A stretch of DNA of 64,000 nt from Candidatus Babeliales bacterium. GTDB lineage: Bacteria; Babelota; Babeliae; Babelales; JANWKD01. This document shows, piece after piece, positions 15,175 through 55,911 of the stretch (its first letter is position 1; every line of letters begins with the position of its first letter). The stretch is taken from positions 160,001 to 224,000 of the forward strand of contig CAVXJH010000003.1 of assembly GCA_963762115.1 (NCBI GenBank). The letters run 5' to 3'. A program made the translations under genes and the position numbers. The notes beneath the pieces are model-generated. The model was not told the origin of the DNA. It saw only the letters and a list, made by a program, of their open reading frames with translations, and made no database searches.

Positions 15175-15501
15175 ATGATGCTTAAAAAATCTTATTTTTT
15201 CGTTTTGCTTATTACTGTTTTTTCGAAAAATGTTTTTGCTATGGAAGCAATACTTGGCAAAGTAGTGCCAGAATCTGAACTAAAAAATCTACGAGAATGG
15301 AATGAAAAAGCAGTAAAGAGAGGTGCACTTGTTGCGTATAAATCGGGACAACGCTTTTATTATGCTGCTTTACATGAAAAATTAATAGATAATAGTTATA
15401 CAGTCATTATATTACAAAAAACTGATGAGCGCGGGGTGCAATCAGCTCATGGCAGAAAAGCAGAACGTGAAGATTTACGTATTGTTGCTCAAGAAAAATA
15501 A
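15175..15501 (+). CDS. Small hypothetical secreted protein
   Basis: AAGGAG Shine-Dalgarno then MMLKKSYFFVLLITVFSKNVFA-ME signal peptide. Confidence 0.75.
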   Translation: MMLKKSYFFVLLITVFSKNVFAMEAILGKVVPESELKNLREWNEKAVKRGALVAYKSGQRFYYAALHEKLIDNSYTVIILQKTDERGVQSAHGRKAEREDLRIVAQEK

Positions 15502-15585
15502 GCCTTGTTTTGTATTTTTTATATAAAATTCATCTTTTAGATTAGCTTTTTTCTTTTTTTTTGGTATTTCTATATGGTACCCTTT

Positions 15586-15662
15586 GCGCCTGTAGCTCAA
15601 TTGGATAGAGCACCGGACTTCGAATCCGTAGGTTGCAGGTTCGACTCCTGCCGGGCGCACCA
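15586..15662 (+). tRNA. tRNA-Arg(TCG)
   Basis: Acceptor GCGCCTG/CGGGCGC, TAGCTCAATTGGATAGAGC D-arm, anticodon loop CT-TCG-AA, GGTTCGACTCC T-arm, encoded CCA. Confidence 0.95.
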
Positions 15663-15762
15663 TACTTCGCATAAAGCTTCGTATGGCAGGCCATTCTTCC
15701 GGCCTGTTCTTCATAGCTCGAAGAGCGAAGTAGAACTCGGCAAACTACGCCTGGCTTCGCCA
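15660..15762. repeat. Cluster of CTWCG hairpin modules plus a 27-bp repeat downstream of tRNA-Arg(TCG)
   Basis: 15660-15690 CCATA-CTTCG-CATAAAG-CTTCG-TATGG-CAGG; reverse-oriented module 15703-15735; 15736-15762 identical to 16162-16188. Confidence 0.85.
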
Positions 15763-15840
15763 GTTTTTTTAAATGATTAAAATAAATAATAAATAATGCT
15801 AACTTGATGAAGTTGATGCGAAGTAAAAAATACGTCAGAA

Positions 15841-15904
15841 TGTCATTGCGAACCTTCGAAGCTTTTAGCGAAGTAGGTGTGGCAACCCAGATTATGATGT
15901 TCTA
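15841..15904 (+). repeat. Solo TGTC-tagged hairpin arm (B-type tail) whose central loop is a CTWCG module
   Basis: TGTCATTGCGA-[ACCTTCGAAGCTTTTAGCGAAGTAGGT]-GTGGCAACCCAGATTATGATGTTCTA. Confidence 0.85.
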
Positions 15905-15942
15905 TTAAGTCAAATCATTAAAAAATATTAAATATAAAAAGA

Positions 15943-16019
15943 GCGCCCGTAGCTCAGATGGATAGAGCGACAGATTCCTAATCTGTAGGCCACCGGTTCG
16001 AATCCAGTCGGGCGCACCA
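15943..16019 (+). tRNA. tRNA-Arg(CCT)
   Basis: Acceptor GCGCCCG/CGGGCGC, anticodon arm ACAGA-TTCCTAA-TCTGT, GGTTCGAATCC T-arm, encoded CCA. Confidence 0.95.
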
Positions 16020-16188
16020 ACCTACGCCAAGGCTTCGGTTGGCAGGCCAGCTTTTTTAATGATTTTAATAAAATATTTATTTACGAATTGAAGGCGTAGG
16101 TTGTTCGCCGAAGCTTGCCAAGCCGGAAGGCGTGGATAAGCAAAGGCTGGACGATATTATCCTCGGCAAACTACGCCTGGCTTCGCCA
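16017..16188. repeat. Repeat cluster downstream of tRNA-Arg(CCT)
   Basis: 16017-16046 CCAAC-CTACG-CCAAGG-CTTCG-GTTGG-CAGG; 16104-16152 matches 46307-46355 at 48/49; 16162-16188 equals 15736-15762. Confidence 0.85.
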
Positions 16189-16208
16189 TTTTCTTAAATG
16201 AATTGATA

Positions 16209-16694
16209 TTAATAACGTGCTCTATCAGGCATTTTTGAAAACTTTTTCCAAACCTCTACTGCTTCTTCACGTAATTTTTCTGTTGATTTAATAACTCGAT
16301 CGACAGGTTTTTTACACACTTCTTTAAAGATATCGACATCTTTAAAATCGCCATATTTTAAAGCATCTTCCACATGTGCACCATAATAAATATGTTCTAA
16401 ATGTGCCCAATAGGCAGCTGAAAGGCACATAGGGCAAGATTCAGCGCTGGTATAAAGTACACAGCCGGTTAAATGTGGTGAGCCTAACTTTTTGCCAGCT
16501 TCTCTAATTGCCTGCATTTCTGCATGCCATGTAGGATCATTTTCTTTGATAACTTGGTTATATCCTTCAGCAATAATTTTGCCATCTTTTGCAATAACTG
16601 CTCCAAAAACTCCACCTGTTTTTTTAACAAGTGATCCTATCTCACTGAGTTCAATCGCTCGTTTCATAAATGCTTCATTATATTCATTTGCCAT
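16209..16694 (-). CDS. Zn-dependent nucleoside/guanine deaminase (GuaD-like)
   Basis: GGVFGAVI, DPTWHAE and SCPMCLSAAYWA motifs; likely start MANEY. Confidence 0.88.
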   Translation of the reverse strand: MANEYNEAFMKRAIELSEIGSLVKKTGGVFGAVIAKDGKIIAEGYNQVIKENDPTWHAEMQAIREAGKKLGSPHLTGCVLYTSAESCPMCLSAAYWAHLEHIYYGAHVEDALKYGDFKDVDIFKEVCKKPVDRVIKSTEKLREEAVEVWKKFSKMPDRARY

Positions 16695-36818: not shown

Positions 36819-36931
36819 TGTCATCATGAGGAGCTTTGCGACGTAGTGATCCAGTCTATAAAATAAAAAAAACTTAAATCATGGATTCCTACGCCGTGCT
36901 TCGCCAAGGCTACGCAGGGCTCAGAATGACA
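36819..36931. repeat. Inverted dimer of TGTC-tagged hairpin arms
   Basis: Left TGTCATCATGAG..CGTAGTGATCCAG; right (revcomp) TGTCATTCTGAG-[CTWCG module]-CGTAGGAATCCA. Confidence 0.85.
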
Positions 36932-37634: not shown

Positions 37635-38810
37635 TGTAAAAGTTCATAATTTCGGTGAATAAAAAATACCCACAAAAGTAAATCAGAGTTAGAATTGAAT
37701 ACGCAATATTAACAATTTTAACGCAGGAGTTCTTTTGTGAGTATAAATACATCGTATCCTACTTTGGTTAGCAATTCAATAAAGTACATGCTAAAATATG
37801 TAGAAGAATATGAGCTTGTTAAGGCAAAGAAGCACCCACAATTTAGGTTTGTTCGAGAATTTTTTGAAGCCAGGGAACTCTGTTTCCAGAATTTTTATAA
37901 ACTTTATGGGCGTTATAAAGCAGCCCAGGGAATTCCCGAACTTCTACTGCCTATAAGGCGCGGCCCTAAACCAAAATTTGAAGAATTGCCACTTGCAGAT
38001 GATAGCCTTGTAAAAAAAATTTTAGAATACCGAAAATCAGGTTTAAATAGGTATGTTATCGCTGCAGCTCTCAAGAAAAATCCTTCGATCAAAAAAGGTA
38101 TTTCTGCAAGTTCAGTGTACCGAACTTTACGAAAATATGGTGTGTCAAAATTAACCAAGTTAGCGCAAGAGGAAAAAAGAAAGATTGTGAGAACATTTGC
38201 AGGATCATTAGCTCATATAGATTGCCATTACCTACCTAAGGGAATTGTACAATCTGAACCTAAAAAGAAATATTTTGTATTGGGTGTAATTGATGATTTT
38301 TCGAGAATAGTTTGGGTCGAAGTAATTGAATCTTTAAAGGCAATTGATGTTGCCTTTGCTATGATGGATATTATTTTACATATGAACCAACGATATAGTA
38401 TCACCTTTGATGAAGCTCTGACAGATAATGGTGCTGAGTTTTGTTCAACGCCAGAAAAATTAAAAAATCATCCTTTTGAACGATTGCTACTTCATTTTGC
38501 GATTAAACATCGAAGAACTTTGCCTTATCGACCACAAACAAATGGAAAAATTGAAAGATTTTGGCGTTCTTTTGATGATGAAGTTATTGAAGGATCCATC
38601 TTTAACACAATCGATGAATTAAAAGATGCTGTTCTTGGATATAATTTCTATCACAATGAACATCGGCCGCATCAAGGTTTGAATGGCAAAGTACCATTCG
38701 AATTGTTGAAAGAAACCGGCATACCCGTTTAAGGAATTAAAAAACTTACAATTCAACTTTGATTGCCACTTTGTGCAAAAAATTATTCACCGAAACTCTG
38801 AACACATACA
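37635..38810 (+). mobile_element. IS481-family insertion sequence, 1176 bp
   Basis: TGT...ACA ends; 28-bp imperfect terminal inverted repeats (23/28: 37635-37662 and 38783-38810); 5-bp target duplication GCAAT at 37630-37634 and 38811-38815. Confidence 0.92.
37737..38732 (+). CDS. IS481-family DDE transposase (rve integrase core)
   Basis: HIDC, IDDFSR, LTDNGAEF, PQTNGKIERF and YN..RPHQGL motifs. Confidence 0.93.
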   Translation: MSINTSYPTLVSNSIKYMLKYVEEYELVKAKKHPQFRFVREFFEARELCFQNFYKLYGRYKAAQGIPELLLPIRRGPKPKFEELPLADDSLVKKILEYRKSGLNRYVIAAALKKNPSIKKGISASSVYRTLRKYGVSKLTKLAQEEKRKIVRTFAGSLAHIDCHYLPKGIVQSEPKKKYFVLGVIDDFSRIVWVEVIESLKAIDVAFAMMDIILHMNQRYSITFDEALTDNGAEFCSTPEKLKNHPFERLLLHFAIKHRRTLPYRPQTNGKIERFWRSFDDEVIEGSIFNTIDELKDAVLGYNFYHNEHRPHQGLNGKVPFELLKETGIPV

Positions 38811-44479: not shown

Positions 44480-45943
44480 GTGCAAAAAGGAGTATCGATT
44501 GTGAAGATTAATGCACGTTATAGGTATGCCATTATTGGTAGTATTATTTGTAGTATTGCTTTTGGGTTATATTATCTTACTTCTAAGCCTTCAAAACAAT
44601 CATCATTTTCTGTTTCATCACTTCTCAAGGAAAAAAATCTTGTTCCTGTTGTTGTCATTGGTTCCGGGCCAGCCGGTTTGAGTGCTGCGTTATTTACTGC
44701 GCGTGCTAATTTCAAAACAATCGTGATTGCTGGACAACAAGAAGGTGGACAATTAATGGAAGCGGCTTATGTAGAAAATTGGCCTTCAAAGAAAAAAATG
44801 AGTGGTAGTGATATGATGCGTGATTTAAAAGAACAAGCAGAGCAATTTGGCGCAAAAGTTATTACTGCCTATGTTGATTATGTAGATTTTTCAACATTTC
44901 CCTTTACTCTTCATCTTAATACAGGCGAAATTCTTAAAGCATTATCAGTTATTGTTGCAACAGGTGGTTCGCAACGTACGTTGCCAATTCCCGGTGTAAA
45001 AGAATATTGGGGTAAAGGTATTGGTGTGTGTACTATTTGTGATGCGCCTTTTGATAAAGGTAAAGAGGTGGTTGTCATTGGCGGTGGCGATGCTGCTTGT
45101 GATAAAGCGTTACAGCTTGCTGCTTTTGCCAAACAAGTCACCATGTTGGTGCGTGATAAAGAAATGCGTGCGGCTGATATTGTGCAAGGATATGTAAAAA
45201 ATACAAAAAATATTGCGGTGCGCTGCGATGTTGCGGTTGAAAAAATTATTGGTGCAAATGGTAGAGTTTCTGCTCTTGAATTGCGTGATGCGCAATCAGG
45301 AAAAAATGAGACAATGCCGATTCAATCAGTTTATTTTGCTCTCGGTTTTGATCCTAATTCTCAATTATTTAAAGGATTGTTGCAACTTAACAAAAATGGT
45401 TACGTCGTGTTGCATGAAAATATCCAAAAAACATCAGTTGATGGCGTATTCGCTGCTGGCAACATAGAAGATCCCTTGTATCAAAAAGCGAGCGTCGCTG
45501 CAGGTGCCGGTGCGAGGGCAGGTCTAGATGCAATCCAATTTTTACAAGAAAAAGGTTTCACGCCAACGGTGGCAGAAGCGCTCAAGAATGTTTTGTATGT
45601 TGAACATAAGAATTGTAAAAATGGCATTCTTACCCCTTCAACGCAAGAAGAATTACAAAAAATCTTTGCCGAGCATGATACTCTTATTATTGATTTTTAT
45701 GCTCGCACGTGTCCTGTTTGTAAAATGCTTGCTCCTTATTTTCAACAAGCATGTGCGCAGATGGGTGAAAGTGTTACCTTTGCTTCATTTGATATTCAAA
45801 ATTCATCTGAGATTGTCAAACAATTTAACATTGAATCGACACCAACGCTGATTTTCTTAAAATCAGGAAAAGAGGTTGCACGTTCAATTGCTTTGCGTTC
45901 GCTTAAAGATATCGTTGATTTTGTTCAGAAAAACAAAAAATAA
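44480..45943 (+). CDS. trxB: Thioredoxin reductase-thioredoxin fusion with N-terminal TM anchor (copy 2)
   Basis: GSGPAG, GGQL, CTICD and GGGDAA motifs; C-terminal DFYARTCPVC; likely start GTG 44501 after AAGGAG. Confidence 0.9.
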   Translation: MQKGVSIVKINARYRYAIIGSIICSIAFGLYYLTSKPSKQSSFSVSSLLKEKNLVPVVVIGSGPAGLSAALFTARANFKTIVIAGQQEGGQLMEAAYVENWPSKKKMSGSDMMRDLKEQAEQFGAKVITAYVDYVDFSTFPFTLHLNTGEILKALSVIVATGGSQRTLPIPGVKEYWGKGIGVCTICDAPFDKGKEVVVIGGGDAACDKALQLAAFAKQVTMLVRDKEMRAADIVQGYVKNTKNIAVRCDVAVEKIIGANGRVSALELRDAQSGKNETMPIQSVYFALGFDPNSQLFKGLLQLNKNGYVVLHENIQKTSVDGVFAAGNIEDPLYQKASVAAGAGARAGLDAIQFLQEKGFTPTVAEALKNVLYVEHKNCKNGILTPSTQEELQKIFAEHDTLIIDFYARTCPVCKMLAPYFQQACAQMGESVTFASFDIQNSSEIVKQFNIESTPTLIFLKSGKEVARSIALRSLKDIVDFVQKNKK

Positions 45944-45959
45944 AACTCAAATTTATTGA

Positions 45960-45995
45960 CTGGATCACTACGGAACTTCGTTCCTCATGATGACA
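45960..45995 (-). repeat. Solo TGTC-tagged hairpin arm
   Basis: Revcomp TGTCATCATGAG-GAACGAAGTTC-CGTAGTGATCCAG. Confidence 0.85.
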
Positions 45996-46112
45996 TTCTG
46001 TTAAAATTGTTAATTTTGCTTGTAGAAATCTATATTGCTTCGTCGAGTTCGCGTTAATTAACATTAGTTCGATAAAAAATTATTGATTGATTAATGAGTA
46101 AAATATCTCCCA

Positions 46113-46372
46113 TGTCTTCCCGAGGAGCATTGCGACGTGGGGATCCAGCCTATAAAATTCTTTTTCTTTTTTCCTATTTCCTAATTAGGTTGCTTTTATT
46201 GATTCAATAAATTTTAATTTTAGGAATTTTATTTATAGAACATTATAAGCTGGGTTCCCACGGTCCGCCTTCGTTAAAACTATGGCGAACAGGCACAATT
46301 GGTGGATTCGCCGAAGCTTGCCAAGCCGGAAGGCGTGGATAAGCATAGGCTGGACTGTGCCTCGGAATGACA
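46113..46372. repeat. Inverted TGTC dimer; right arm carries two nested insertions
   Basis: Left TGTCTTCCCGAG..CGTGGGGATCCAG; right arm interrupted by 46264-46293 and 46299-46355. Confidence 0.9.
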
Positions 46373-46539
46373 TTTCGGGGTTTGATATCTTTTTGTTGAG
46401 GCCAAATTTTCTTAATAACTCTCCCAAGATAAATGTATTTATAAAAAATAAAATGCAAAATATTGCAAATTGAAAAATAAAAATGCTACACTCAGGTACA
46501 GATAAAATGTTACGATAAAATTAGCTGAGAGGATGTGTT

Positions 46540-47556
46540 GTGAGTGTTAGGAATAATCGGTTATTGATGCTCATATGGTTATGTGTAATGAGCCAAATTA
46601 CTAAAACTGAAGATGAAAAATATTTAGTTAAAAGTAAGTTAGAGCCGGTTGTTTTCACGTCTAATTCACCCTTTTATGATGAAAATGGTTTAATTACTAT
46701 TACACGCAAAGGTTTTCTTCTTAAAAAACCAAAGGCGCAAGCAACAGTGCTCGTGTGTCATGGTTTTATGTGTGATAAATTTGATTCTGCTTTCTTGCGT
46801 ATGATATTTCCTACGTGTTGTAATGTTATGACATTTGATTTCAGAGCGCATGGTGAAAATGTGAGCGAACATCAATATTGTACCTTTGGTCGCGATGAAG
46901 CGAATGACGTTATTGCGGCAGTTAACTATTTGAAATCTCGTCCTGATATTGGTCACATGCCTATTATTGCTTATGGTTTTTCAATGGGTGCCGTTGCATC
47001 AATTCAAGCACAGGCAGCATATCCTAATCTTTTTTGTGCCATGATTTTAGATTGTCCTTATGACCACAGTAAAAATGTTATTAAAAAAGGTCTTGAGAAT
47101 TTAAAGTTTTCATTTTTTGGCTATCAATTTTCCTTGCCTGGAAAAGAGCTGCTTGAACAATATGCTTTTCATCCGTATGTGCAATCATTTCTCAAAGCAG
47201 TGTTAAAAACGGTTGCTAATATGGATGCAACGGCAACAAACACGTATATTTATCCGGTAAGTCCTATGGATTCTATTAAAAATGTTATGGTTCCTTGTTT
47301 CTTTATTCATTGTTTGAATGATGAAAAAGTGCCGGTAAGTGCGGCAAGAAATTTATTTAATGGTGCGCGTGGGTATAAACGATTATGGCTTACTTCTGGC
47401 CGCCGCCATTTTGATTCATTTTTCTATAACCCAGAAAAATATGTGTATAGAATAAATCGTTTTATTCAAAAAGTTCTTGAATCGTCACTTGAAGGAAAAG
47501 AACAACAAAAAATTAAGCAGGATGCGATCGTCGATCAAGCAATTGCTGCTGCATAA
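46540..47556 (+). CDS. Alpha/beta hydrolase (serine esterase/peptidase fold)
   Basis: HGF, FDFRAHG, GFSMG nucleophile elbow, D..VP and RH motifs; hydrophobic N-terminus; ends DQAIAAA. Confidence 0.88.
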   Translation: MSVRNNRLLMLIWLCVMSQITKTEDEKYLVKSKLEPVVFTSNSPFYDENGLITITRKGFLLKKPKAQATVLVCHGFMCDKFDSAFLRMIFPTCCNVMTFDFRAHGENVSEHQYCTFGRDEANDVIAAVNYLKSRPDIGHMPIIAYGFSMGAVASIQAQAAYPNLFCAMILDCPYDHSKNVIKKGLENLKFSFFGYQFSLPGKELLEQYAFHPYVQSFLKAVLKTVANMDATATNTYIYPVSPMDSIKNVMVPCFFIHCLNDEKVPVSAARNLFNGARGYKRLWLTSGRRHFDSFFYNPEKYVYRINRFIQKVLESSLEGKEQQKIKQDAIVDQAIAAA

Positions 47557-47674
47557 ATTTGATGAGAGTAAAGCAATGTATTGAAATTCAATTAGAATTT
47601 ATTATACACTTGATGCTAGTGATTTGTTAAAAAAATTAAAAGTGGTAGTTAGAAAGCTTTGGGGAGTTGGCATA

Positions 47675-50600
47675 ATGAAATTTTTAAACTGTTCTTGGTT
47701 AAAAATAATGTTTGTCGGTGCGCTACTTGCAGTGCCTTTTTTTGGTGTTGAAGATAATTTTGCTATGGAAGGTGAAATTATTGGTCGATTGGTTTCAGAA
47801 GGTTTAGAAGAAGGTGTTGCGCAGGGAATTGGTCGTGCTGCACAAGAAGGATTTGCCTTTGGCGCAGAAGAATTTGCGCAAAAAGGCTTAAGTGAAGGTG
47901 TTGAGGGCGCTTTGAATTCCAGTATCAAAGAAGGTCTTCAAGCTTTAGAGGGAGATATTGCGAAATTTAAAGCGGGTACAATTTCGATTGAAGAATTAAA
48001 ACAATCAGCAGCTACTGTTTTTGGTGAACAGAAAGGGAATTTTCTTAAAAATGCATCTAATGCTTTAGAAAAACAAGGAAGTTTTACTCAATTTGATAAG
48101 GCGCTTTTGGAAGGTAAACTTCCTGAGGGTTCATTTGCCAAATTTGGCGAACTGAAGCCACGTGCACTTGCCGAACAAGGAAATGTGTTAAAAGTAGAAA
48201 TAGTAAAAGGTACTCCTGATGCGCAAATTAGTGAATCTTTGGTGAAAGAAGATGCTGTTGACGTTGCGCAAAATGAGGTAACGGCGGCTAAAAATGCTGG
48301 TGGGTCATCCGAAGAAATTGCAGCAAAAGAAGGTGACTTAAAAACAGCAAAAAATGATTTGGCTGCAGATCAAAAAGTGCGAGCAAATGAAAGAGAAACA
48401 AAAGTAACTAAGGCAAAATCAGACCTAGATGCAGCGCAGAAAGAATTTGATGAAGCAACCTCGATAAAAGGAAAAAAAGAAGCTGGTGATAAATTAACTA
48501 AAGCTAATGAAAAACTTAATAAAACTAAAATTGAATATGAAGAATCATTAAAAGAAAAAGTAGCTGATGAAAAGTTAACGTATAAGCAAGAGCATGATAT
48601 TGCAAAAGAAGAGTATAAAAATGCTAAAACGGCAAAGGATACAGCAGACACTGAACTTAAACAAGCTAAACAAGAGTTAAAAGATGCCAATAACATACAA
48701 CCAAAAGATCAAGCAAAAATTGATGAAGCCCAAGCAAAAGTGAAAGAAAAGACGGCTGATTATGAACAATCGGGCAGAAATGTTGAAGAGGCACAAAAGA
48801 ATCTTATTGAAAAAGAAAATCAAGTATTAGAAAAATCTGATATTTTTAAAAATAAATGGGAAAAAACAAAGATCTTTGGCACAAAAGGTAAACGTGGTGC
48901 TTGGGAAATGGTGAAGGGAATTCCAGCATCGTTATACAATAAAGCACTCTTTATGGTTGATCAAATGTGGATAAGTATTCTTTTTGGTGCGCCAAATATG
49001 CTTATTGAGGGTTATAACTCTGCTATGGCCAAGAAAAAATTATTAGAAACAAAAGAAAGTTTTCAAAGATGGGGATATACGTGGCTTAAAATTCCAGGTT
49101 TTTGGATTAACAAAGAAGATCCGGCTAACTCACTGAATATCTATGTTGGTGTGCCAAATGATGGGTTCCCTATTACTGATACTTTCTTGCAGACTGCAAA
49201 TTACTATGTGGTGAAAAGTGATTATACCCCTTGGGGTAGTTCTTCTATTTTTGATAATATTTCCGATATGGTTCATTTAAACACCGGTTTTGTTTTTGTG
49301 AGCGATGGTCAGGCTGCAGATCTAAATGCTCCTACAATGCCTTTTATAGATGAAAAAAAACCTGAAAATGGTTTAATCTATCAATTGGATGCATTGGCTG
49401 GAAAAGCTTCTGCGGGTGTAAAAACTCAAGGTATTGAATATTATGTTGATGATTATGAGGCTGGTTACCAAGGTAATTTTAAAGTAGCTAATTTATTTAA
49501 AACGGTTGGTGTGCCATCTATAACTAATTTTCCTCCATTGCTTATGCCAACAGTTAAAGCATTACAAGATGGTTTAAGCTTTGGTATTGATAAAACAGGA
49601 AAAGCGCTTTATTTGGTACAAGGTTTTAGAGGATTTAATAAATCAGAACAAAACAATGGTAAAAACATTATGGCGGCATTAAGAGGTGACTCTACTATTG
49701 AGAGTGCGCCTGAAGCGGCTAGAGATGAAAACTATGTTATACAAGGTGTTTATATTTATCAAACAAAAGATACACCAATTGTTGATTTGGTCAAAAAGCA
49801 AATTGCTGCTGATGATGCTGAAAAACAGTTGTTATTGGATGCGATTACTGATTATGTGGTGATGCTTGATAGCAGCAATAATATTGTTCCTTTGATGACG
49901 CCTCAGCCGATGGTGTTGCCTGCTGGTTCAAAAGATTCTGCGTTTGTACATTATGCACTTAATCCGCAAATTGATAAAATGAAAAGTCTTGTTGATGGCA
50001 GCAGTAGTGCTTATGATGCTCATGGTGGCATTGAAAATAATGTAGCACTTCCTGCAGATCTTTCTGCGCCAAAAGCGGTTGCTGATCAAATTCAAGCAAT
50101 GCAAACATTCTTTAACACAAAAATCAAATATGGGCCATTCAAATATAACGGTACCATTTTAACGATTGATAAAACGCTTGCTGATGCAAATATTTTTGCG
50201 TATAAAGCTGCAGGATTCTTGGAAGGTGGCTTTGATGATTATTTTGTCGCCTTAGAAGCAATGAAAGATGAGAAAACCGGCAAAACAGTATTAGTTGCTG
50301 CTTCATTGCCTTCAAATGGCATTGTTTATTTTGTTAGTTTAGTAACATCGCGTTTTTATGATAAAAATTTGCAACCATATGCACCGCCGGTTGCACCGAA
50401 TTTAAGAGATTATTATATAAAAGATAACAATGTTGCAACAGGAAAACCTGATGATGCTACTTTACCACAAGCAAAAGCGGCGTTATATACCTTATTTGTT
50501 CAGGGCGAATATAACCCAAGTCCAAAACCGGCAAATTTTGTGGGTTCTTTACCCGTGAAGCCTTATTGGGCGCTTGATTCATCGATGTTTAATCTGCAAG

Positions 50601-53600
50601 GTATTAGTCCAATCAGTAAGGCATTAACAGATTTAAAACAGACAACATTACTTGCAGCAATTAAAACGGCACATGAAAATTGGATTACTGTGCTTGATGT
50701 TTCTGATCCTGGCGCTTTATCCAAAAAAATGGGGCCTTTTGATTTCACCACAGGGGCTATTGAGAATGTTCGTTTGCGAGCGTTGAATGCATCGGCTCTT
50801 AAACTTGGGTATTATATCTATACTTCAGGTCGTTATCCGGATGAGTTTTTAGTGGTTTCAAAAAATGAAACGGGAACTGATGGCGTTGGTGAAGAATTTG
50901 GTGATCAACAATATTTGATTAGCCTTTCAAATGGTAATGTGTATGATGCACAAGCAAATGGTAATGCTCGTACGCCAATTAAGAATATTGATTCGTTAAT
51001 GAAAACATTAGCATTAAATAATGCTGGTGTTGATAGTCGTATTGCTCATGAGCAAACAACATTGAATACTCTTAAGAGGACCACACAAGCGGATACAAAA
51101 ATCAAAGCGGCTGATAAACAAGCAAAAATTAAAACTATTGATGCGCAAATTGCTTCTATACCAACACAAAAAGCTGCATTGTATGCTATGGTGAATACCA
51201 TTGAGCAATCGCAAGTTGGTTATAATCGTTCAATGATGAATAATCTGTATAGTGATGATCTGACTTTTGGTGGTAGACAATTATATCTGTCAAAAGAATC
51301 ATATCTTGCTGGTCAATATATTTATGCTGATGTAACGGGTCTTGGTGATCCTTTAGATGCAAATGGAAAAGAAATAAAGGCGGTGACTGATCAAATTAAA
51401 GATTATTATGTTACGTATGAAGAAGGTCCAATAAATGTCGATACGGGTAAGCCTGATCCAGAAAATATTATTGCAAATCAACTCAATAAAAATACTACAC
51501 GAATAATAAGTCTTATTTCTGGTGGTGAATTTGATCGTGGTGGTGCCTTTGTTAGATCATATCAAACGATTACAATTGCTGATAAAACTACTTCTGATTT
51601 AATGGATTTTGTTAAAAAGATATTTGATATTATTAAAGCGCGCATGGATAAAGAAGGACGGCCACAAACGATTATATTACTAGGCAAAATACAACCATTG
51701 CTTGATGTGCAATATGCTGCAGTGAAAAAAGAATTGGATGCCATAGCAGAAGCTAAGAAAAATGCACTTGATCAGTACCCATCAGAATCTAATCTTGCAT
51801 CGAATCTTTTTGCAAGAAAAGATCCGTCAGATTTTTCTTCCAAAGATGTTGTACCGTATGTTGAGCAAAGTCCGGCATTATTACCACGGTATTTAAAACA
51901 AGTAACCAAAGGGAGCAAATATTATTTTGTTGCGCCTCCTGCATCAGATCCTGAGAGTGATTCTGGTAAAAAATATGAAGCAAGTCGTGCATTTATCGAT
52001 TACGATATTGATGCAAAAGATCATATCGGTCCAAATGCAAAAGGTATGATGTATGATCGTAGTGGTAAACCGCTGCAATTATTGACTGGTTGGATGTTAA
52101 ATAGTATGCGTGCTTATGCAGGACTTCTTATTGATGCAAGTGGAAAACAAAGTCTCGGCATTGGCGTTGAACATCCTTCATTGCCATTAACGGTGGTAAG
52201 AAACGGAAAAACAGAAAATGTTATGATTGATACGGGTATTAAAATCCCTGCTGATAAAGGAGCAACATTTACCGCTTATTATAATACACAAATTGATAAT
52301 TACTTTGTGCAAATTACCACAAAGCTATCAAATTACTTCATTGATTTAACAGCCGGTTATGGTTACAACCTTGATGGAACGCCGCGTTGGTATGAAGCAC
52401 CACTATTTACTGATGATAAAGGTGAAGTGTTGTTGGTTGGTACTGATAGTTTTGGGCTTAAAAAAGTTGCTTTCAAAAAACAAGGAGCAACAAAATATCT
52501 TATTTATAATCAAATGGTGAGCTTTGGTGATCTTGCTTCCTATCAAACAACTGATGAGTTGGGAAATCCAATTACTAAAAACTATATTGCTACTTCAGGC
52601 AGTGTTAAATTTCCAGAATATGGTAATGCGCAAGGTTCTTATTTCACTATGTTGAGTGACAGTTTTGGTGATCAAGGTGCGGCACCTGTTTCAACAGCAG
52701 GAGGAGAGCCAACATTGCAAGAATTACGTATAGGGTATGCTTATTTAGATCAAACAGGCAATCAATTGACGGCACCATTTTATGTTGTATGGGATCAAGT
52801 GCAAGTGGATAATCCTGGCTATGATACCTCCAAAGACGAAGGTTTTCAAAATCCTAAATATTTGGTGAAAACAAAATTGGTTGGTAAATTTATTCAAAGT
52901 CCAACAATGAAATTCTCATTGTTAAATTATGTGCAAACGCGTAATTCAGCTGGAAGTTTAGCAGGAACTTATAAGCCCGAAGATTTTTATAATTTCCCCC
53001 GTGGTGCGTGCGATCCAACTGATAGTGCTTGTATCAAAACACCAAAAGTTGTTGGGATTCTTTTCACCGTTGAATCAATAACTGGTAAGCAAGTAATCAA
53101 AGAACTTTTCTATGAAAATCAACGATGTGCGCTTACGCTTAAATCAAAAGATGCGTATTCAAGTTCCTATCAAGATGCAACAGGAAAAATTAAACCAATT
53201 ACGGTTAAACTTGAAAGTTCGCAACAAAAAGATTCACCGCTATCTGCTCATTGGCTAAGCATTACTGATGGCGCAAAAATTCTTGATTTTGCCCATGAAT
53301 CAATGGTTTGGGATACTTCACCGATGCGCTCTGATATGCCAGAAACAACAAATCTTGATTATAGAAAACGAAGAACATGGCAATTAAATGTGAGTAATTT
53401 TATAACCAATGCTGCTCTTTCGGCGAATTTTCCTGGTATTCACACCAATGCATTAGCAACAAGTCTTAATGCGGGAGTTCAAGGAGTTAATTTTGAGAGT
53501 CTTGTTGGTTGTAAGGTTTCTGATAGTATCAAAGCAGAAATTAATTTTGGCTTGAAAGCAATATCTGTTGATATGGCAGGTAACCTTTATCTCCCTCATG

Positions 53601-53935
53601 TGCCAAGTGCAAAAAAAGAAAGTCCTGTGGTGAAACGATACGTGTATACTTTTGGCAAAAATGTGCTTGAGAAAAATCTTTCATTCTATGATCCAGGCTT
53701 GGATGGTTGGTCGGTAGATTTAAATAATGGTATTTTATATGAACCGGCAACACCAAGATTTGGTTCGTATCCTATTGGAGTTGCTTTACATCCAGATGCG
53801 CTTGCTGAATTACTTGGTTCATTGCGATTATATGTTGATCGTGATTTACAAGGTAATCCAAAAGGATTGGGTATTGCAAATTGTCGTGATGAGTTAAAAC
53901 CAGCACCAACAACGAAGTCAGCTTTAAAACGTTAG
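47675..53935 (+). CDS. Giant (about 2090 aa) secreted protein with coiled coil and repeated beta-rich domains
   Basis: Uninterrupted ORF; GGGGAG then MKFLNCSW signal peptide; K/E/A-rich heptads at about aa 205-410; recurring SL..G..YD..G motif. Confidence 0.85.
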   Translation: MKFLNCSWLKIMFVGALLAVPFFGVEDNFAMEGEIIGRLVSEGLEEGVAQGIGRAAQEGFAFGAEEFAQKGLSEGVEGALNSSIKEGLQALEGDIAKFKAGTISIEELKQSAATVFGEQKGNFLKNASNALEKQGSFTQFDKALLEGKLPEGSFAKFGELKPRALAEQGNVLKVEIVKGTPDAQISESLVKEDAVDVAQNEVTAAKNAGGSSEEIAAKEGDLKTAKNDLAADQKVRANERETKVTKAKSDLDAAQKEFDEATSIKGKKEAGDKLTKANEKLNKTKIEYEESLKEKVADEKLTYKQEHDIAKEEYKNAKTAKDTADTELKQAKQELKDANNIQPKDQAKIDEAQAKVKEKTADYEQSGRNVEEAQKNLIEKENQVLEKSDIFKNKWEKTKIFGTKGKRGAWEMVKGIPASLYNKALFMVDQMWISILFGAPNMLIEGYNSAMAKKKLLETKESFQRWGYTWLKIPGFWINKEDPANSLNIYVGVPNDGFPITDTFLQTANYYVVKSDYTPWGSSSIFDNISDMVHLNTGFVFVSDGQAADLNAPTMPFIDEKKPENGLIYQLDALAGKASAGVKTQGIEYYVDDYEAGYQGNFKVANLFKTVGVPSITNFPPLLMPTVKALQDGLSFGIDKTGKALYLVQGFRGFNKSEQNNGKNIMAALRGDSTIESAPEAARDENYVIQGVYIYQTKDTPIVDLVKKQIAADDAEKQLLLDAITDYVVMLDSSNNIVPLMTPQPMVLPAGSKDSAFVHYALNPQIDKMKSLVDGSSSAYDAHGGIENNVALPADLSAPKAVADQIQAMQTFFNTKIKYGPFKYNGTILTIDKTLADANIFAYKAAGFLEGGFDDYFVALEAMKDEKTGKTVLVAASLPSNGIVYFVSLVTSRFYDKNLQPYAPPVAPNLRDYYIKDNNVATGKPDDATLPQAKAALYTLFVQGEYNPSPKPANFVGSLPVKPYWALDSSMFNLQGISPISKALTDLKQTTLLAAIKTAHENWITVLDVSDPGALSKKMGPFDFTTGAIENVRLRALNASALKLGYYIYTSGRYPDEFLVVSKNETGTDGVGEEFGDQQYLISLSNGNVYDAQANGNARTPIKNIDSLMKTLALNNAGVDSRIAHEQTTLNTLKRTTQADTKIKAADKQAKIKTIDAQIASIPTQKAALYAMVNTIEQSQVGYNRSMMNNLYSDDLTFGGRQLYLSKESYLAGQYIYADVTGLGDPLDANGKEIKAVTDQIKDYYVTYEEGPINVDTGKPDPENIIANQLNKNTTRIISLISGGEFDRGGAFVRSYQTITIADKTTSDLMDFVKKIFDIIKARMDKEGRPQTIILLGKIQPLLDVQYAAVKKELDAIAEAKKNALDQYPSESNLASNLFARKDPSDFSSKDVVPYVEQSPALLPRYLKQVTKGSKYYFVAPPASDPESDSGKKYEASRAFIDYDIDAKDHIGPNAKGMMYDRSGKPLQLLTGWMLNSMRAYAGLLIDASGKQSLGIGVEHPSLPLTVVRNGKTENVMIDTGIKIPADKGATFTAYYNTQIDNYFVQITTKLSNYFIDLTAGYGYNLDGTPRWYEAPLFTDDKGEVLLVGTDSFGLKKVAFKKQGATKYLIYNQMVSFGDLASYQTTDELGNPITKNYIATSGSVKFPEYGNAQGSYFTMLSDSFGDQGAAPVSTAGGEPTLQELRIGYAYLDQTGNQLTAPFYVVWDQVQVDNPGYDTSKDEGFQNPKYLVKTKLVGKFIQSPTMKFSLLNYVQTRNSAGSLAGTYKPEDFYNFPRGACDPTDSACIKTPKVVGILFTVESITGKQVIKELFYENQRCALTLKSKDAYSSSYQDATGKIKPITVKLESSQQKDSPLSAHWLSITDGAKILDFAHESMVWDTSPMRSDMPETTNLDYRKRRTWQLNVSNFITNAALSANFPGIHTNALATSLNAGVQGVNFESLVGCKVSDSIKAEINFGLKAISVDMAGNLYLPHVPSAKKESPVVKRYVYTFGKNVLEKNLSFYDPGLDGWSVDLNNGILYEPATPRFGSYPIGVALHPDALAELLGSLRLYVDRDLQGNPKGLGIANCRDELKPAPTTKSALKR

Positions 53936-53940
53936 AACAG

Positions 53941-53978
53941 TGTGGGGAGATGGAAATTATTATTTCTGTCTCCCCACA
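53941..53978. terminator. Long hairpin just after the giant ORF
   Basis: TGTGGGGAGATGGAAAT-TATT-ATTTCTGTCTCCCCACA; no strong T-tail. Confidence 0.55.
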
Positions 53979-54097
53979 GAATATCATAGTTCTTTTTACC
54001 ATAAGTTCCGTTATACTAGAACGCGATAAGTTAAAATAATGTAACGTGAATTCGATGTATCAAATTAGTGATTTGCAAATGACTAAAATAACCAAAG

Positions 54098-54325
54098 TGT
54101 CATTGCGAGGAGCAATTGCGACGTGGCAACCCAGATTATAATGTTCTAATAAATAAGACTGCTTAATCTGTTGTGAAAAATTTTCAGCACAAAAATAATA
54201 AGAAAAATAAATAGAATTTTATATGCTGGATCCTCCTACGTCAAGACTTCGGAGGACAGGTCCCCACTAGACCCTTCGTAGCTTTAGCGTAGTAGGGCCA
54301 CGGCACAATGTGCCTCGGGAAGACA
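54098..54325. repeat. Inverted TGTC dimer (reverse polarity); right arm carries two nested hairpin modules
   Basis: Left TGTCATTGCGAG..CGTGGCAACCCAGATTATAATGTTCTA; inserts at 54231-54260 and 54268-54301. Confidence 0.9.
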
Positions 54326-54399
54326 TTTGTGTTTATCTTAGTTGCGGTAAAATTATTTATTGGTATATCGAATTTGGTTCATCACCATAAGGACATGTC

Positions 54400-55911
54400 A
54401 TGGTAAAAATACAACTTACTGATACGCCTTTGTTAGAAACAAAGACATCAGCAACCATTTTCTTTTTAGAACAAGATTTTAATGCACAGGTGCTTGAGAA
54501 GATAGCACAAAAATATTTTCCTGATTTAACAGAATATATGCAAGAATCAGAATTTACTGGCAAAGCAACGAATCTTTTAGCCGTGCCGAGTTCGGTTAAT
54601 AAAAAAGTCCATACACTTTTTTTTGCGGGCTTAGGGAAGCAACACGATACTAAGGCAATTGATATTGAAGTATATCGACGCTCACTAGGGCGCGTTATCA
54701 AAGCATTGCAAAGTAAAAAAATTGCAAAAGCGGCGATGAGTTTACCGTCGGCAGCATTATTTGGTGTTTCAGATGACTATTTAGCACGAGAAACCATTAT
54801 TATTGCCAATATGGCAGCATATCGTTTTGATGAATTTATTACCGATCCAGAGCGCAAAGTAAATCAAAATATTGATCTTGAATGTACTATTGATGCACAT
54901 GATAAAAAAGCAGTTGAACGCGGTTTGAAAACAGGCGCAATTATTGCACACTCAGTTAATCGTGCGCGTCATTGGATTGATTTGCCACCCATTGCATTAC
55001 CACCAATTGCCTTAGCCGATAAAGCAGTTGCCATTGCAAAAGAACATAATCTTGCCATTACGGTGTTTGGTGAACAAGAAATCATAAAAATGGGCATGGG
55101 CGGCCTCGCAGCAGTTTCGGCTGGATCTGAACAAGATTGTAAGTTGGTTGTTATGAAATATACAACAGACAAAAAAGATGCTCCAACTATCGCCTTTGTT
55201 GGTAAAGGAATTACGTTTGATTCTGGCGGGTTAAGTTTAAAACCAGCAGCTTCCATGGAAACAATGAAAGAAGATATGTCCGGCGCGGCAGCAGTCATTA
55301 GCGCAATGGAATCATTGGCACAATTAAAACCGGAAGTAAATATTATTGCCTTAACACCACTTTCAGAAAATTTACCAAGTGGTAAGGCAACAAAACCGGG
55401 TGATATTATACGTTTTTATAACGGTAAAACAGCTGAAGTACGCAATACTGATGCTGAAGGTCGTTTGATTTTAGCAGATGCGCTTTCATATGCAGTCAAG
55501 CAGTATAAGCCTGATGCAATTATTGATCTTGCAACGTTAACGGGTGCTTGCGCTTATGCTTTAGGGCCTTTTTTTAGTGGTATGATGTCACAGCATGAAG
55601 ATTTTGCACAAAAAGTAGAAAAAGCATCACACACTTCTGGTGACCGCGTGTGGGCATTGCCTTTTAATAATGATTATAAAGTAGCAATCAAGTCAGACGT
55701 TGCTGATATTTGTAACATTGGTAGCGGTAAATATAAAGCTGGCGCTATCACAGCAGGATTCTTCTTACAAAATTTTGTTGAAAATACGCCGTGGGTTCAC
55801 TTAGATATTGCAGGAACAGCCTTTGATGTACCTGACATTAGTTATTATTCAACGGGTGCCACTGGTGTTGGTGTGAGATTGCTTGTTGATCTTGCGATGG
55901 CATGGCAATAA
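54400..55911 (+). CDS. pepA: Leucyl aminopeptidase (M17)
   Basis: VGKGITFDSGG, MKEDM, NTDAEGRL, ATLTGA and HLDIAG motifs. Confidence 0.96.
   Translation: MVKIQLTDTPLLETKTSATIFFLEQDFNAQVLEKIAQKYFPDLTEYMQESEFTGKATNLLAVPSSVNKKVHTLFFAGLGKQHDTKAIDIEVYRRSLGRVIKALQSKKIAKAAMSLPSAALFGVSDDYLARETIIIANMAAYRFDEFITDPERKVNQNIDLECTIDAHDKKAVERGLKTGAIIAHSVNRARHWIDLPPIALPPIALADKAVAIAKEHNLAITVFGEQEIIKMGMGGLAAVSAGSEQDCKLVVMKYTTDKKDAPTIAFVGKGITFDSGGLSLKPAASMETMKEDMSGAAAVISAMESLAQLKPEVNIIALTPLSENLPSGKATKPGDIIRFYNGKTAEVRNTDAEGRLILADALSYAVKQYKPDAIIDLATLTGACAYALGPFFSGMMSQHEDFAQKVEKASHTSGDRVWALPFNNDYKVAIKSDVADICNIGSGKYKAGAITAGFFLQNFVENTPWVHLDIAGTAFDVPDISYYSTGATGVGVRLLVDLAMAWQ

Follow-up and report, generated by a model that had tools for sequence, protein, structure and literature searches.

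Nested hairpin repeats in a Babeliales genome and their probable ties to two small GIY-YIG nucleases

Background

What are the compact inserts that interrupt repeat arms in a 64,000-nucleotide stretch of a Candidatus Babeliales bacterium genome (assembly GCA_963762115.1, contig CAVXJH010000003.1, positions 160,001 to 224,000; hereafter the window), and how do they come to lie inside other repeats? The arms carry a TGTC tag, and the inserts are hairpin modules of about 30 nucleotides (nt) that also follow two tRNA genes of the window. The original prediction, made from this DNA alone, took them for a minimal mobile hairpin that targets other structured DNA, in an undescribed system to which the arms also belonged. 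We compared the genome of the window (G000, a 7-contig assembly of an uncultured organism) with the whole genome of a congener (G001), with other genomes of the order, and with genomes and metagenome loci from other phyla. In many bacterial phyla a tiny element with a nuclease gene is placed behind tRNA genes, and the inserts are copies of its hairpin that lack the gene. We consider it probable that two systems of hairpin repeats are here nested in one another, each linked to its own small single-domain GIY-YIG nuclease.

Module inserts in the repeat arms

Read directly from the window, the consensus of the TGTC arm is TGTCATTGCGAGG-CACATTGTG-CCGTGGCAACCCAG. A genome-wide seed search of G000 found plain arms of 30-49 nt, mostly in inverted pairs 100-200 bp apart, that is, as miniature inverted-repeat transposable elements (MITEs). 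Of 107 matches to an arm pattern, 91 fall within this length range, and the longer ones are mostly false, the nested arm excepted. About 90 plain arms, ending in ...CCCACGGCACAATGTGCCTCGGAATGACA, formed the comparison set for inserts. Measured against them, the three inserts first proposed at 46264-46293, 54231-54260 and 54268-54301 are clean, and direct reading confirms their coordinates, as it does those of the modules at arm centres (15852-15878, minus strand; 36894-36919, plus strand) and behind both tRNA genes (15660-15686 and 16017-16042). The features are collected in Table 1.

The right arm at 46250-46372 consists in turn of CTGGGTTCCCACGG, the 30-nt insert (TCCGCC TTCGTTAAAACTAT GGCGAA CAGG), CACAAT, the 57-nt insert and GTGCCTCGGAATGACA; the 57-nt insert has copies in G001 at 90-97% identity (blastn). 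In the right arm at 54226-54325 the order is CTGGA, the forward insert (TCCTCC TACGTCAAGACTTC GGAGGA CAGG), TCCCCAC, the reverse insert and GGCACAATGTGCCTCGGGAAGACA. The reverse insert is bounded by a 4-nt duplication (CCAC...CCAC on the plus strand), and the two inserts form an inverted doublet (54231-54301) resembling both the cassette arm described below and REPINs, the paired form of repetitive extragenic palindromes (REPs). The arm site of the forward insert is also occupied in MITEs of G001 and in arms from Opitutaceae (L044, L100). Every insertion lies in a loop or at a stem foot. The places occupied are the arm centre, the internal loop on the 3' side of the central hairpin, the base of the arm stem, and the NCCA that follows a tRNA acceptor stem.

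Among public sequencing runs only two, both of DNA and none of RNA, cover parts of 45900-54700 (shares 0.27 and 0.09). A contig from these runs (record 1) equals 46119-46280 without a difference, and may derive from the source sample. A joint from 46263 to 46357 that skips both inserts was considered as an excision allele and rejected: its shorter side is 21 nt, the run has less than 95% likeness, and it most likely represents a paralogous plain arm of a relative.

The arms themselves belong to a family already described. Their 5' tag is TGTC or CGTC and unpaired; a stem of about 5 bp with an AT start encloses GAG...CGTG plus an extra central hairpin, and is followed by a CCAG tail. The stem covaries (ATTGC/GCAAC, ATTCC/GGAAC, ATCAC/GTGAC and others), and the variant at 15841-15890 recurs at C3:325215, C6:149296 and C6:386473. 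CGTC-tagged REPs, as described in the main text of PMC3733652, allow a TGTC tag, start their stem with AT, end in CCA and form head-to-head dimers, with no transposase found. Their known form has an 8-9-bp stem starting with A-T pairs, a 4-5-nt loop and a short CCA-like tail, and the NTS and Ssn-related motifs (SRMs), dRS3, RPE-4 and RPE-6 are the same repeats according to these sources (Di Nocera et al. 2013, PMC3733652; Chenal et al. 2025, PMC11893778). SsnA is described as a single-domain GIY-YIG protein that is typically flanked by the motif and cleaves single-stranded DNA (ssDNA) beside it (Chenal et al. 2025, PMC11893778).

In G000, inverted arms stand on both sides of each of two SsnA-like GIY-YIG open reading frames (ORFs) of about 98 aa (C3:533000-533206 and C3:558505-558723). 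This arm-gene-arm order is the NTS-ssnA-NTS layout set out in the main text of PMC11893778, and the arms fit the definition of CGTC-tagged REPs as given in PMC3733652. Inverted arm pairs without an ORF are the 170-220-bp MITEs of the window. Sub-terminal sequences are common to these MITEs and to the arm-flanked SsnA-like genes; the MITEs are therefore ORF-less derivatives. The TGTC arms and their nuclease are thus known biology, namely CGTC-tagged REPs or Ssn-related motifs with SsnA as their own enzyme (PMC3733652; PMC11893778, main texts), and do not belong to an undescribed system as had been supposed.

Table 1. Positions of arms, modules and associated tRNA genes in the window
Feature	Position	Strand	Remarks
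tRNA-Arg(TCG)	15586..15662	+	ARAGORN, Rfam; encoded CCA forms the first 3 nt of the next hairpin
Module on tRNA CCA	15660..15690	+	CCATAC TTC GCATAAAGC TTC GTATGG + CAGG
Inverted module	15703..15735	-	TTCTAC TTC GCTCTTCGAGC TAT GAAGAA + CAGG
CGTC/TGTC-tagged SRM-type arm	15841..15890	+	Central hairpin is module 15852-15878 (minus strand)
tRNA-Arg(CCT)	15943..16019	+	ARAGORN, Rfam
Module on tRNA CCA	16017..16046	+	CCAACC TAC GCCAAGGC TTC GGTTGG + CAGG; none behind the orthologous G001 tRNA
Inverted copy of module 5' half (GGCGTAGGTTG), then inverted long-inner module	16093..16157	-	Same layout as upstream of GIY-YIG genes
MITE left arm	36819..36854	+	TGTCATCATGAGG...CGTAGTGATCCAG; G001 without MITE at this locus
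MITE right arm	36882..36931	+	Central module 36894-36919 (CCGTGC TTC GCCAAGGC TAC GCAGGG)
MITE left arm	46113..46148	+	TGTCTTCCCGAGGAGCATTGCGACGTGGGGATCCAG
MITE right arm with two nested inserts	46250..46372	+	Compared with plain arms
30-nt module insert	46264..46293	+	TCCGCC TTC GTTAAAAC TAT GGCGAA CAGG; clean relative to plain arms
57-nt insert in loop of the arm's central hairpin	46300..46356	-	Long-inner module, paralogue of 16104-16157
MITE left arm	54098..54134	+	Direct reading and seed search
MITE right arm with inverted module pair	54226..54325	+	G001 arm at probable orthologous locus module-free
30-nt module insert	54231..54260	+	TCCTCC TAC GTCAAGAC TTC GGAGGA CAGG, between CTGGA and TCCCCAC
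Reverse 34-nt module insert	54268..54301	-	Hairpin 54272-54297 CCCTAC TAC GCTAAAGC TAC GAAGGG

Structure of the module and evidence for pairing

The module comprises a variable 6-bp outer stem, a 3x3 internal loop of the form TWC/TWY, an inner stem G-YY-AA-RR-C or a longer inner hairpin, and a CAGG-like tail, which is CAGG, CAAG or CATG in G000 and CACGGCC, CAAGCCA or CATGGCC elsewhere. The outer stem varies with compensatory changes. It had been described as different in every copy, which is not so: the stems of G000 group into classes (CCAGCT, CCATAC, CCAACC, CCCTAC, TCCGCC/TCCTCC, ACCTAC and TTCTAC). The pair of CTWCG boxes, held to be nearly fixed, is indeed conserved, but the conserved part is wider and takes in the 3x3 loop together with the covarying inner stem.

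Matches exceed chance in a genome-wide pattern search: the pattern proposed with the original prediction has 45 matches in G000 against 17, 22 and 19 in three first-order Markov simulations. A structural scan, in which the 6-nt flanks around TWCG...CTWY had to be complementary at no fewer than 5 of 6 positions, gave 39 matches against 17, 9, 10 and 10 in simulations. From these 39 we kept the 30 matches with GC-rich stems and dropped 9 AT-rich ones as chance-like. Modules lie in arms and at tRNA ends; ORFs of at least 120 aa make up 85.5% of the genome, yet they contain none of the 30.

Pairing was assessed on 79 cross-phylum matches picked by loop and tail alone, with the 5' flank left unconstrained. 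In 67 of them the 5' flank pairs with the 3' flank at no fewer than 5 of 6 positions, whereas sliding the flank by 1, 2, 3 or 6 nt left 3, 0, 0 and 1 of the 79. Both inner YY/RR pairs are Watson-Crick in 77 of 82 instances, against a mean of 34.5 and a maximum of 46 in 2000 shuffles. The module is clearly under pairing constraint.

Modules occur in further arrangements. Four stand in tandem with a 31-nt period in a relative from the same order (G026:C12:27114-27230), and modules lie head-to-tail in an Acidobacteriota record (L052). In G000 the module at C3:515102-515127 is duplicated with its flank at C3:527788-527813; about 330 nt from the former is a 54-aa fragment (C3:515450-515560) that weakly matches Y1_Tnp (E 0.002).

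Modules at tRNA 3' ends

About 17 of the 41 tRNA genes of G000 are followed by a module whose stem starts at the encoded CCA, and every tRNA of one cluster may bear its own copy (C7:29862-30298). The CCATAC hairpin behind tRNA-Arg(TCG) stands behind 6 tRNAs of G000. Part of the inverted module at 15703-15735, GCGAAGTAG, pairs with ATACTTCGC of the module at 15660-15690, and this long-range stem is present in the minimum free energy (MFE) fold. Behind tRNA-Arg(CCT), the segment 16018-16028 returns as an inverted copy at 16093-16103, followed by a second hairpin at 16104-16157. Together, 16017-16046 and 16093-16157 are a gene-less copy of the non-coding arm of the cassette described in the next section.

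Rfam at the gathering threshold reported two tRNAs only across the whole window; at E up to 5 it gave nothing relevant on 15500-16300, and at E up to 0.01 no match on four non-tRNA cassette loci.

The segment CGGCAAACTACGCCTGGCTTCGCCA is repeated at 15737-15771 and 16163-16197; in its first copy CTGGC-TTC-GCCAG and T7 make up a canonical terminator-like site behind the trailer of tRNA-Arg(TCG). The same CTACGCCTGGCTTCGCCA closes many tRNA trailers in G001.

A GIY-YIG gene in the cassette

The original prediction suggested looking for a co-occurring gene of one of several enzyme classes, GIY-YIG nucleases among them. Such a gene, of about 80 aa and similar to SLX1 and UPF0213 (here GIY2), stands behind the same hairpin in G000, in other genomes of its order and in other phyla. 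The full cassette runs from a tRNA or tmRNA ending in CCA, through a hairpin that starts on this CCA, a CAGG-like tail, a spacer of about 70 nt, a 10-nt inverted copy, an inverted hairpin and about 20 nt, to the ATG of the gene. The first hairpin is spelled ...CCA-NNN-TWCG-inner stem-CTWC-N'N'N'-TGG, and the inverted copy is an exact CA-NNN-TWCGC. G000 has three GIY2 genes, at C5:10640-10876, C5:155834-156073 and C5:148331-148567 (the last with an in-frame TGA), and the hairpin layout stands before each of them. Hairpins are confined to the upstream side, and the gene always points in the direction of the tRNA, with no obvious promoter of its own. No GIY2 gene is present in the 64-kb window, so its copies are gene-less: two cassette arms behind the two tRNA-Arg genes, and elsewhere single or paired hairpins in arm loops and stem feet. 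The solo modules of the arms resemble the second hairpin of the cassette (TCCGCC class, followed by CAG in its own orientation).

A GIY2 profile matches SLX1 (7cq2, E 7e-10) and UPF0213 proteins (1zg2, 1ywl) in the PDB, and identity to the local SsnA-like protein is 28% (hhalign probability 96%). The GIY2 alignment has Y5, R27, H31 and E63 without exception and Y17 almost always; we take these five to be the catalytic positions of GIY-YIG enzymes. The family is large, with 4,707 representatives of 50%-identity clusters matching at E ≤1e-10. Database versions often carry spurious N-terminal extensions which, judged by eye, are presumably translated hairpins and tRNA genes.

In four metagenome loci from GC-rich relatives (L315, L318, L321 and L333), the loop of the first hairpin encloses the inverted copy and the second hairpin; the 5' CCA-NNN strand still has two alternative partners to pair with, in swapped order. 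Three GIY-YIG cassettes without a known tRNA upstream are preceded by a conserved sequence of about 100 nt ending in ...CTACTAGGTAACGCCA (G000 C5:156226-156330 and C5:148660-148760; G001 about 224,440-224,540). It is about 90% identical between the congeners, has no Rfam match, and may represent a small RNA, so far unannotated, that ends in CCA.

Linkage of gene and hairpin across phyla

Within the order we compared 41 genomes, which are related to one another, so that the following counts are not independent and have no test attached. The module motif is present in 23 genomes and GIY2 in 28; the reversed pattern had 0 matches. Motif and strong GIY2 match coincide in 18 genomes, 5 have the motif only, 7 GIY2 only (with variant hairpins) and 11 neither, which puts the motif in 18 of 25 genomes with a strong GIY2 match as against 5 of 16 without. 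Of the 13 genomes devoid of any GIY2 match, 11 are devoid of the module as well. By a strict scan the module lies upstream in 22 of 29 GIY2 rows, and six of the seven misses have variants by eye.

The association extends well beyond the order. A DNA scan for one loop variant over 185,579 species genomes returned at least 120 stretches, with a chance estimate of about 17; among the matches listed are Patescibacteria, Verrucomicrobiota, Planctomycetota, Alphaproteobacteria (including isolates), Acidobacteriota, Nitrospira, Babeliales and others. GIY2 was found in four of five genomes drawn from these matches. Records from Nitrospira and Saccharibacteria have it about 110 nt beyond the tRNA and hairpin that the scan had found, and an Opitutus record holds a tRNA-gene-tRNA-gene array.

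Starting instead from the protein, we sampled 80 metagenome loci, 67 of which have at least 250 nt upstream. A strict module is present in 31 of the 67 and a same-direction tRNA or tmRNA in 32; 48 have either and 19 neither, and by eye a variant or nested hairpin is recognizable in 18 of 20 misses inspected. Perfect inverted repeats of 10 nt or more are present in 60 of 83 distinct upstream regions, compared with 18 of 75 downstream regions and 1-4 of 83 in shuffles. In 50 of the 83 upstream regions such a repeat starts at a CCA, and its covarying arm takes at least 13 different sequences. The stem class of the hairpin follows the GIY2 tree (21 changes versus 26-34 in 200 shuffles). We considered this agreement as evidence of nuclease specificity and set it aside, as physical linkage alone accounts for it.

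Turnover between congeners

Trailer types behind tRNA genes are nearly uniform within G000 and within G001, and differ between the two. The hairpin is on tRNA-Arg(CCT) and tRNA-Arg(TCT) only in G000, and on tRNA-Thr(CGT) and tRNA-Ala(TGC) only in G001. As an empty site the tRNA-Arg(TCT) loci do not align cleanly, since about 1.4 kb of different sequence stands at this place in G001.

The loci of the window's three MITEs can be compared in G001, where synteny is preserved. At 36 kb G001 has no MITE, and at 46 kb its MITE bears a module at another arm site. At 54 kb its MITE shares the asymmetric arm types, but the right arm reads CTGGATCCCCACG...CTCGGGAAGACA, with neither module present. This is the module-free allele to be expected at an orthologous locus if the modules were inserted, with orthology probable and with composites of arm and module also spreading whole. 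One identical module occupies the same arm site (TGGA^TYSCCA) in at least six arm contexts of G001, and at least ten composite arms of 102-124 nt in G001 group into subfamilies.

Interpretation and alternatives

The observed anatomy, covariation, gene linkage, cross-phylum spread and congener turnover of the module lead us to favor the reading given at the outset, that two GIY-YIG/hairpin systems are nested in one another. By analogy with SsnA acting on NTS and with the structure-selective SLX1, the 80-aa nuclease may recognize a folded ssDNA hairpin and nick it at the junction of single and double strand. Repair or strand transfer could then copy hairpins, either alone or together with the gene, to further junctions of this kind, candidate targets being the unpaired NCCA tail after a tRNA acceptor stem and the loops of other hairpin repeats. 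A place behind tRNA genes would give the promoter-less gene strong transcription. We infer the specificity of the nuclease, the strand on which it would act, its cleavage site and the mode of spread, as well as the mobility of a lone 30-nt hairpin and its mechanism.

A bolder form of this reading may hold, though we would not count on it. The cassettes would be undescribed, ultra-small selfish elements, common to many phyla and made of a hairpin arm and an 80-aa SLX1-like nuclease, that home in on tRNA and tmRNA genes at the single-stranded NCCA tail. Detached hairpins of about 30 nt would invade the Ssn-associated CGTC/SRM repeats at loops and stem feet, so that two GIY-YIG/hairpin systems parasitize each other, and the enzyme would be a second natural class of hairpin-specific ssDNA nuclease, with a programmable outer stem.

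Several observations weigh against the nested-systems reading. Composite arm-module units have spread as MITE subfamilies, so the many nested copies need one original insertion only, and orthology of the module-free MITE at 54 kb is probable rather than proven, as core lengths differ. The GIY2 paralogues within a genome are 44-53% identical, that is, old, and no recent burst of the gene is visible. Of 42 cassettes, one has a copy of the tRNA 3' end beyond the gene, so that such a duplication is not general, and only 3 have a direct repeat of the hairpin there; the right boundary of the element is therefore undefined. When the inverted copy is present, the MFE fold prefers a long-range stem of 10-12 bp over the local hairpin, which makes the functional fold uncertain. 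No strand bias appeared among stem mismatches (9 of G-T types, 14 of A-C types), and these do not point to an active strand. Two genomes lack GIY2 yet bear modules: G013, with seven in an assembly that is 85% complete, and G014, with one. The notion of a minimal mobile hairpin that targets structured DNA survives in part: clean hairpin inserts do sit in loops, at stem feet and at tRNA ends, but the module is not self-contained, being one hairpin of a larger cassette, and its composites spread as MITE subfamilies.

The strongest of the alternatives, though we think it unlikely, is that the hairpin acts in RNA, as a tRNA 3' trailer that serves as terminator, processing signal or stabilizer of an mRNA 5' end, with the gene hitch-hiking on tRNA transcription and the arm copies as by-products. 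The pairing of the stem with the encoded CCA of some 17 of 41 tRNAs would fit, as would a promoter-less gene always oriented with the tRNA. A T-run (CAGGCCATTTTTTT) often follows the hairpin in the AT-rich G000, but it begins 7 nt away, beyond a CAGGCCA spacer, where an intrinsic terminator has its T-run immediately after the stem, and it is absent from GC-rich phyla (Nitrospira, Opitutus); a true terminator-like hairpin with T7 lies separately at 15749-15768. A trailer function also sits poorly with the presence of individual copies behind each tRNA of a cluster, with orthologous tRNAs of congeners that differ in both presence and type of hairpin, with both orientations inside arms, and with the lack of modules in 11 of the 13 GIY2-less genomes. 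Stem mismatches moreover show no bias of G-U over A-C. Were the hairpin an RNA trailer only, its interest would be modest.

Doubtful to a greater degree is a scheme in which the 80-aa gene is a passenger and the hairpins are moved by the SsnA-like enzyme, by host recombination or gene conversion, or by template switching. Modules do lie in or beside SsnA-type arms in G000, G001, G013 (which has no GIY2 match) and Opitutaceae; homogenization of trailer types per genome is what gene conversion would produce, and three cassettes are flanked by direct hairpin repeats. Such a scheme does not account for the linkage of hairpin and gene across phyla in the protein-first sample, nor for the difference in module frequency between genomes with and without a strong GIY2 match (18/25 against 5/16). 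The agreement of stem class with the GIY2 tree also speaks against it, with the reservation that linkage alone would give the same.

Mobilization by a REP-associated tyrosine transposase (RAYT) or an IS200-type Y1 transposase is very improbable. The module shares with REPs its small size, extragenic position, palindromic form and adjoining tetranucleotide, inverted pairs are frequent (54231-54301; C3:527754-527813), and Y1_Tnp genes are present in G000. A PF01797 search of G000 returned five identical IS200-type copies and one 54-aa fragment but no RAYT, and no single-copy RAYT flanked by modules exists there. The end hairpins of the IS200-type copies (CCCCAGGG...CCTGGGG, CCACGGC...GCCGTG) are unrelated to the module, whose tail is CAGG-like and variable, not GTAG, and the gene linked to it across phyla encodes a GIY-YIG protein.

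That the inserts reflect misassembly, local slippage or chance palindromes we regard as practically negligible: repeats are difficult to assemble in a 7-contig assembly of an uncultured organism, but a hairpin with compensatory stems is found in 23 of 41 genomes of the order with no match for the reversed pattern, recurs in isolate genomes of other phyla (Bradyrhizobium, Mesorhizobium, Brevifollis), forms inserts of exactly 30 nt that are non-repetitive, and agrees with the difference-free public contig over 46119-46280, even if that contig possibly comes from the source sample.

Other features of the window

An ORF of 331 aa with rve integrase-core domains (37737-38732, plus strand) has three copies in G001 at about 86% identity, and is presumably the IS481-type element noted earlier in this DNA. 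Two long ORFs on the plus strand, at 47624-53935 (2103 aa) and 12294-15098 (934 aa), have no Pfam match at E up to 0.001. Elsewhere in G000, the five IS200-type elements mentioned above are near-identical, about 640 bp long, each with a 156-aa Y1_Tnp frame and end hairpins CCCCAGGGTTTTAAACCTGGGG and CCACGGCTTTTAAGCCGTG (C3:498763-499122, C6:283117-283476, C6:404294-404653, C7:24556-24915 and C5:13616-13966). The element appears to have been active recently and to be unrelated to the module.

Comparison with known systems

Like REPs, bacterial interspersed mosaic elements (BIMEs) and REPINs, the modules are short extragenic palindromes with a conserved adjoining tetranucleotide, occur as inverted doublets and clusters, and have gene-less copies that far outnumber the enzyme gene. 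Unlike REPs, they carry a CAGG-like tail in place of GTAG, are anchored on tRNA ends and have no RAYT, the Y1 genes present being those of IS200. REPs are usually lineage-specific, whereas the loop sequence of the module is common to several phyla. Rickettsia palindromic elements (RPEs) and the GC clusters of yeast mitochondria are GC-rich hairpins scattered in an AT-rich genome that insert into other structured sequences. RPEs sit in frame within genes; the modules differ in that none of 30 lies in a long ORF and in that a linked nuclease gene has been identified for them.

Seg homing endonucleases possess a DNA-binding domain and cleave both strands of DNA at a given sequence. GIY2 departs from them as a catalytic domain of 80 aa alone, accompanied by structured non-coding hairpins, on chromosomes and in many phyla. 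A likeness remains to phage T4 SegB, described in PMC2330249 as a small GIY-YIG nuclease whose gene lies among tRNA genes and is thought to favor its own inheritance.

The closest parallel is the Ssn/NTS system, which in 2025 gave a first biochemical meaning to hairpin repeats linked with tiny GIY-YIG nucleases. The arms of the window match it in their YGTC tag, AT stem start, CCAG tail, head-to-head pairing and the SsnA-like gene between them (PMC11893778; PMC3733652, main texts). The module system matches it in design, pairing a tiny single-domain GIY-YIG protein with a directional hairpin repeat of which many copies are gene-less, as the main text of PMC11893778 describes for Ssn. It differs in its nuclease, which appears to belong to another GIY-YIG clade with SLX1 and UPF0213 as best solved relatives, in a hairpin with a 3x3 pyrimidine internal loop and no CGTC tag, in hairpins that lie upstream only instead of on both sides of the gene, and in being known here from sequence where SsnA is known from biochemistry. 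It is also anchored on the CCA of tRNA or tmRNA, and the main text of PMC11893778 mentions neither tRNA nor UPF0213. A search of the full-text literature, which for PMC11893778 and PMC3733652 did not extend to supplements or figures, found no published account of a tRNA-linked GIY-YIG hairpin cassette.

If our reading is correct, the pairing of nuclease and hairpin is a general strategy and not a single case, with a second instance in another clade, with another hairpin and on tRNA ends in Dependentiae, Patescibacteria, Nitrospirota, Verrucomicrobiota and others. A class of GC-rich tRNA trailers, and the spurious short ORFs that these produce in many metagenome-assembled genomes, would be accounted for. 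The reading would also add to the small enzymes that may cut structured ssDNA, and would provide a case in which insertion of one hairpin element into another can be tested. What the window adds to the known systems is the module hairpin nested in Ssn-type arms, a composite also found in Opitutaceae (L044, L100), and it shows an interaction of two GIY-YIG/hairpin systems.

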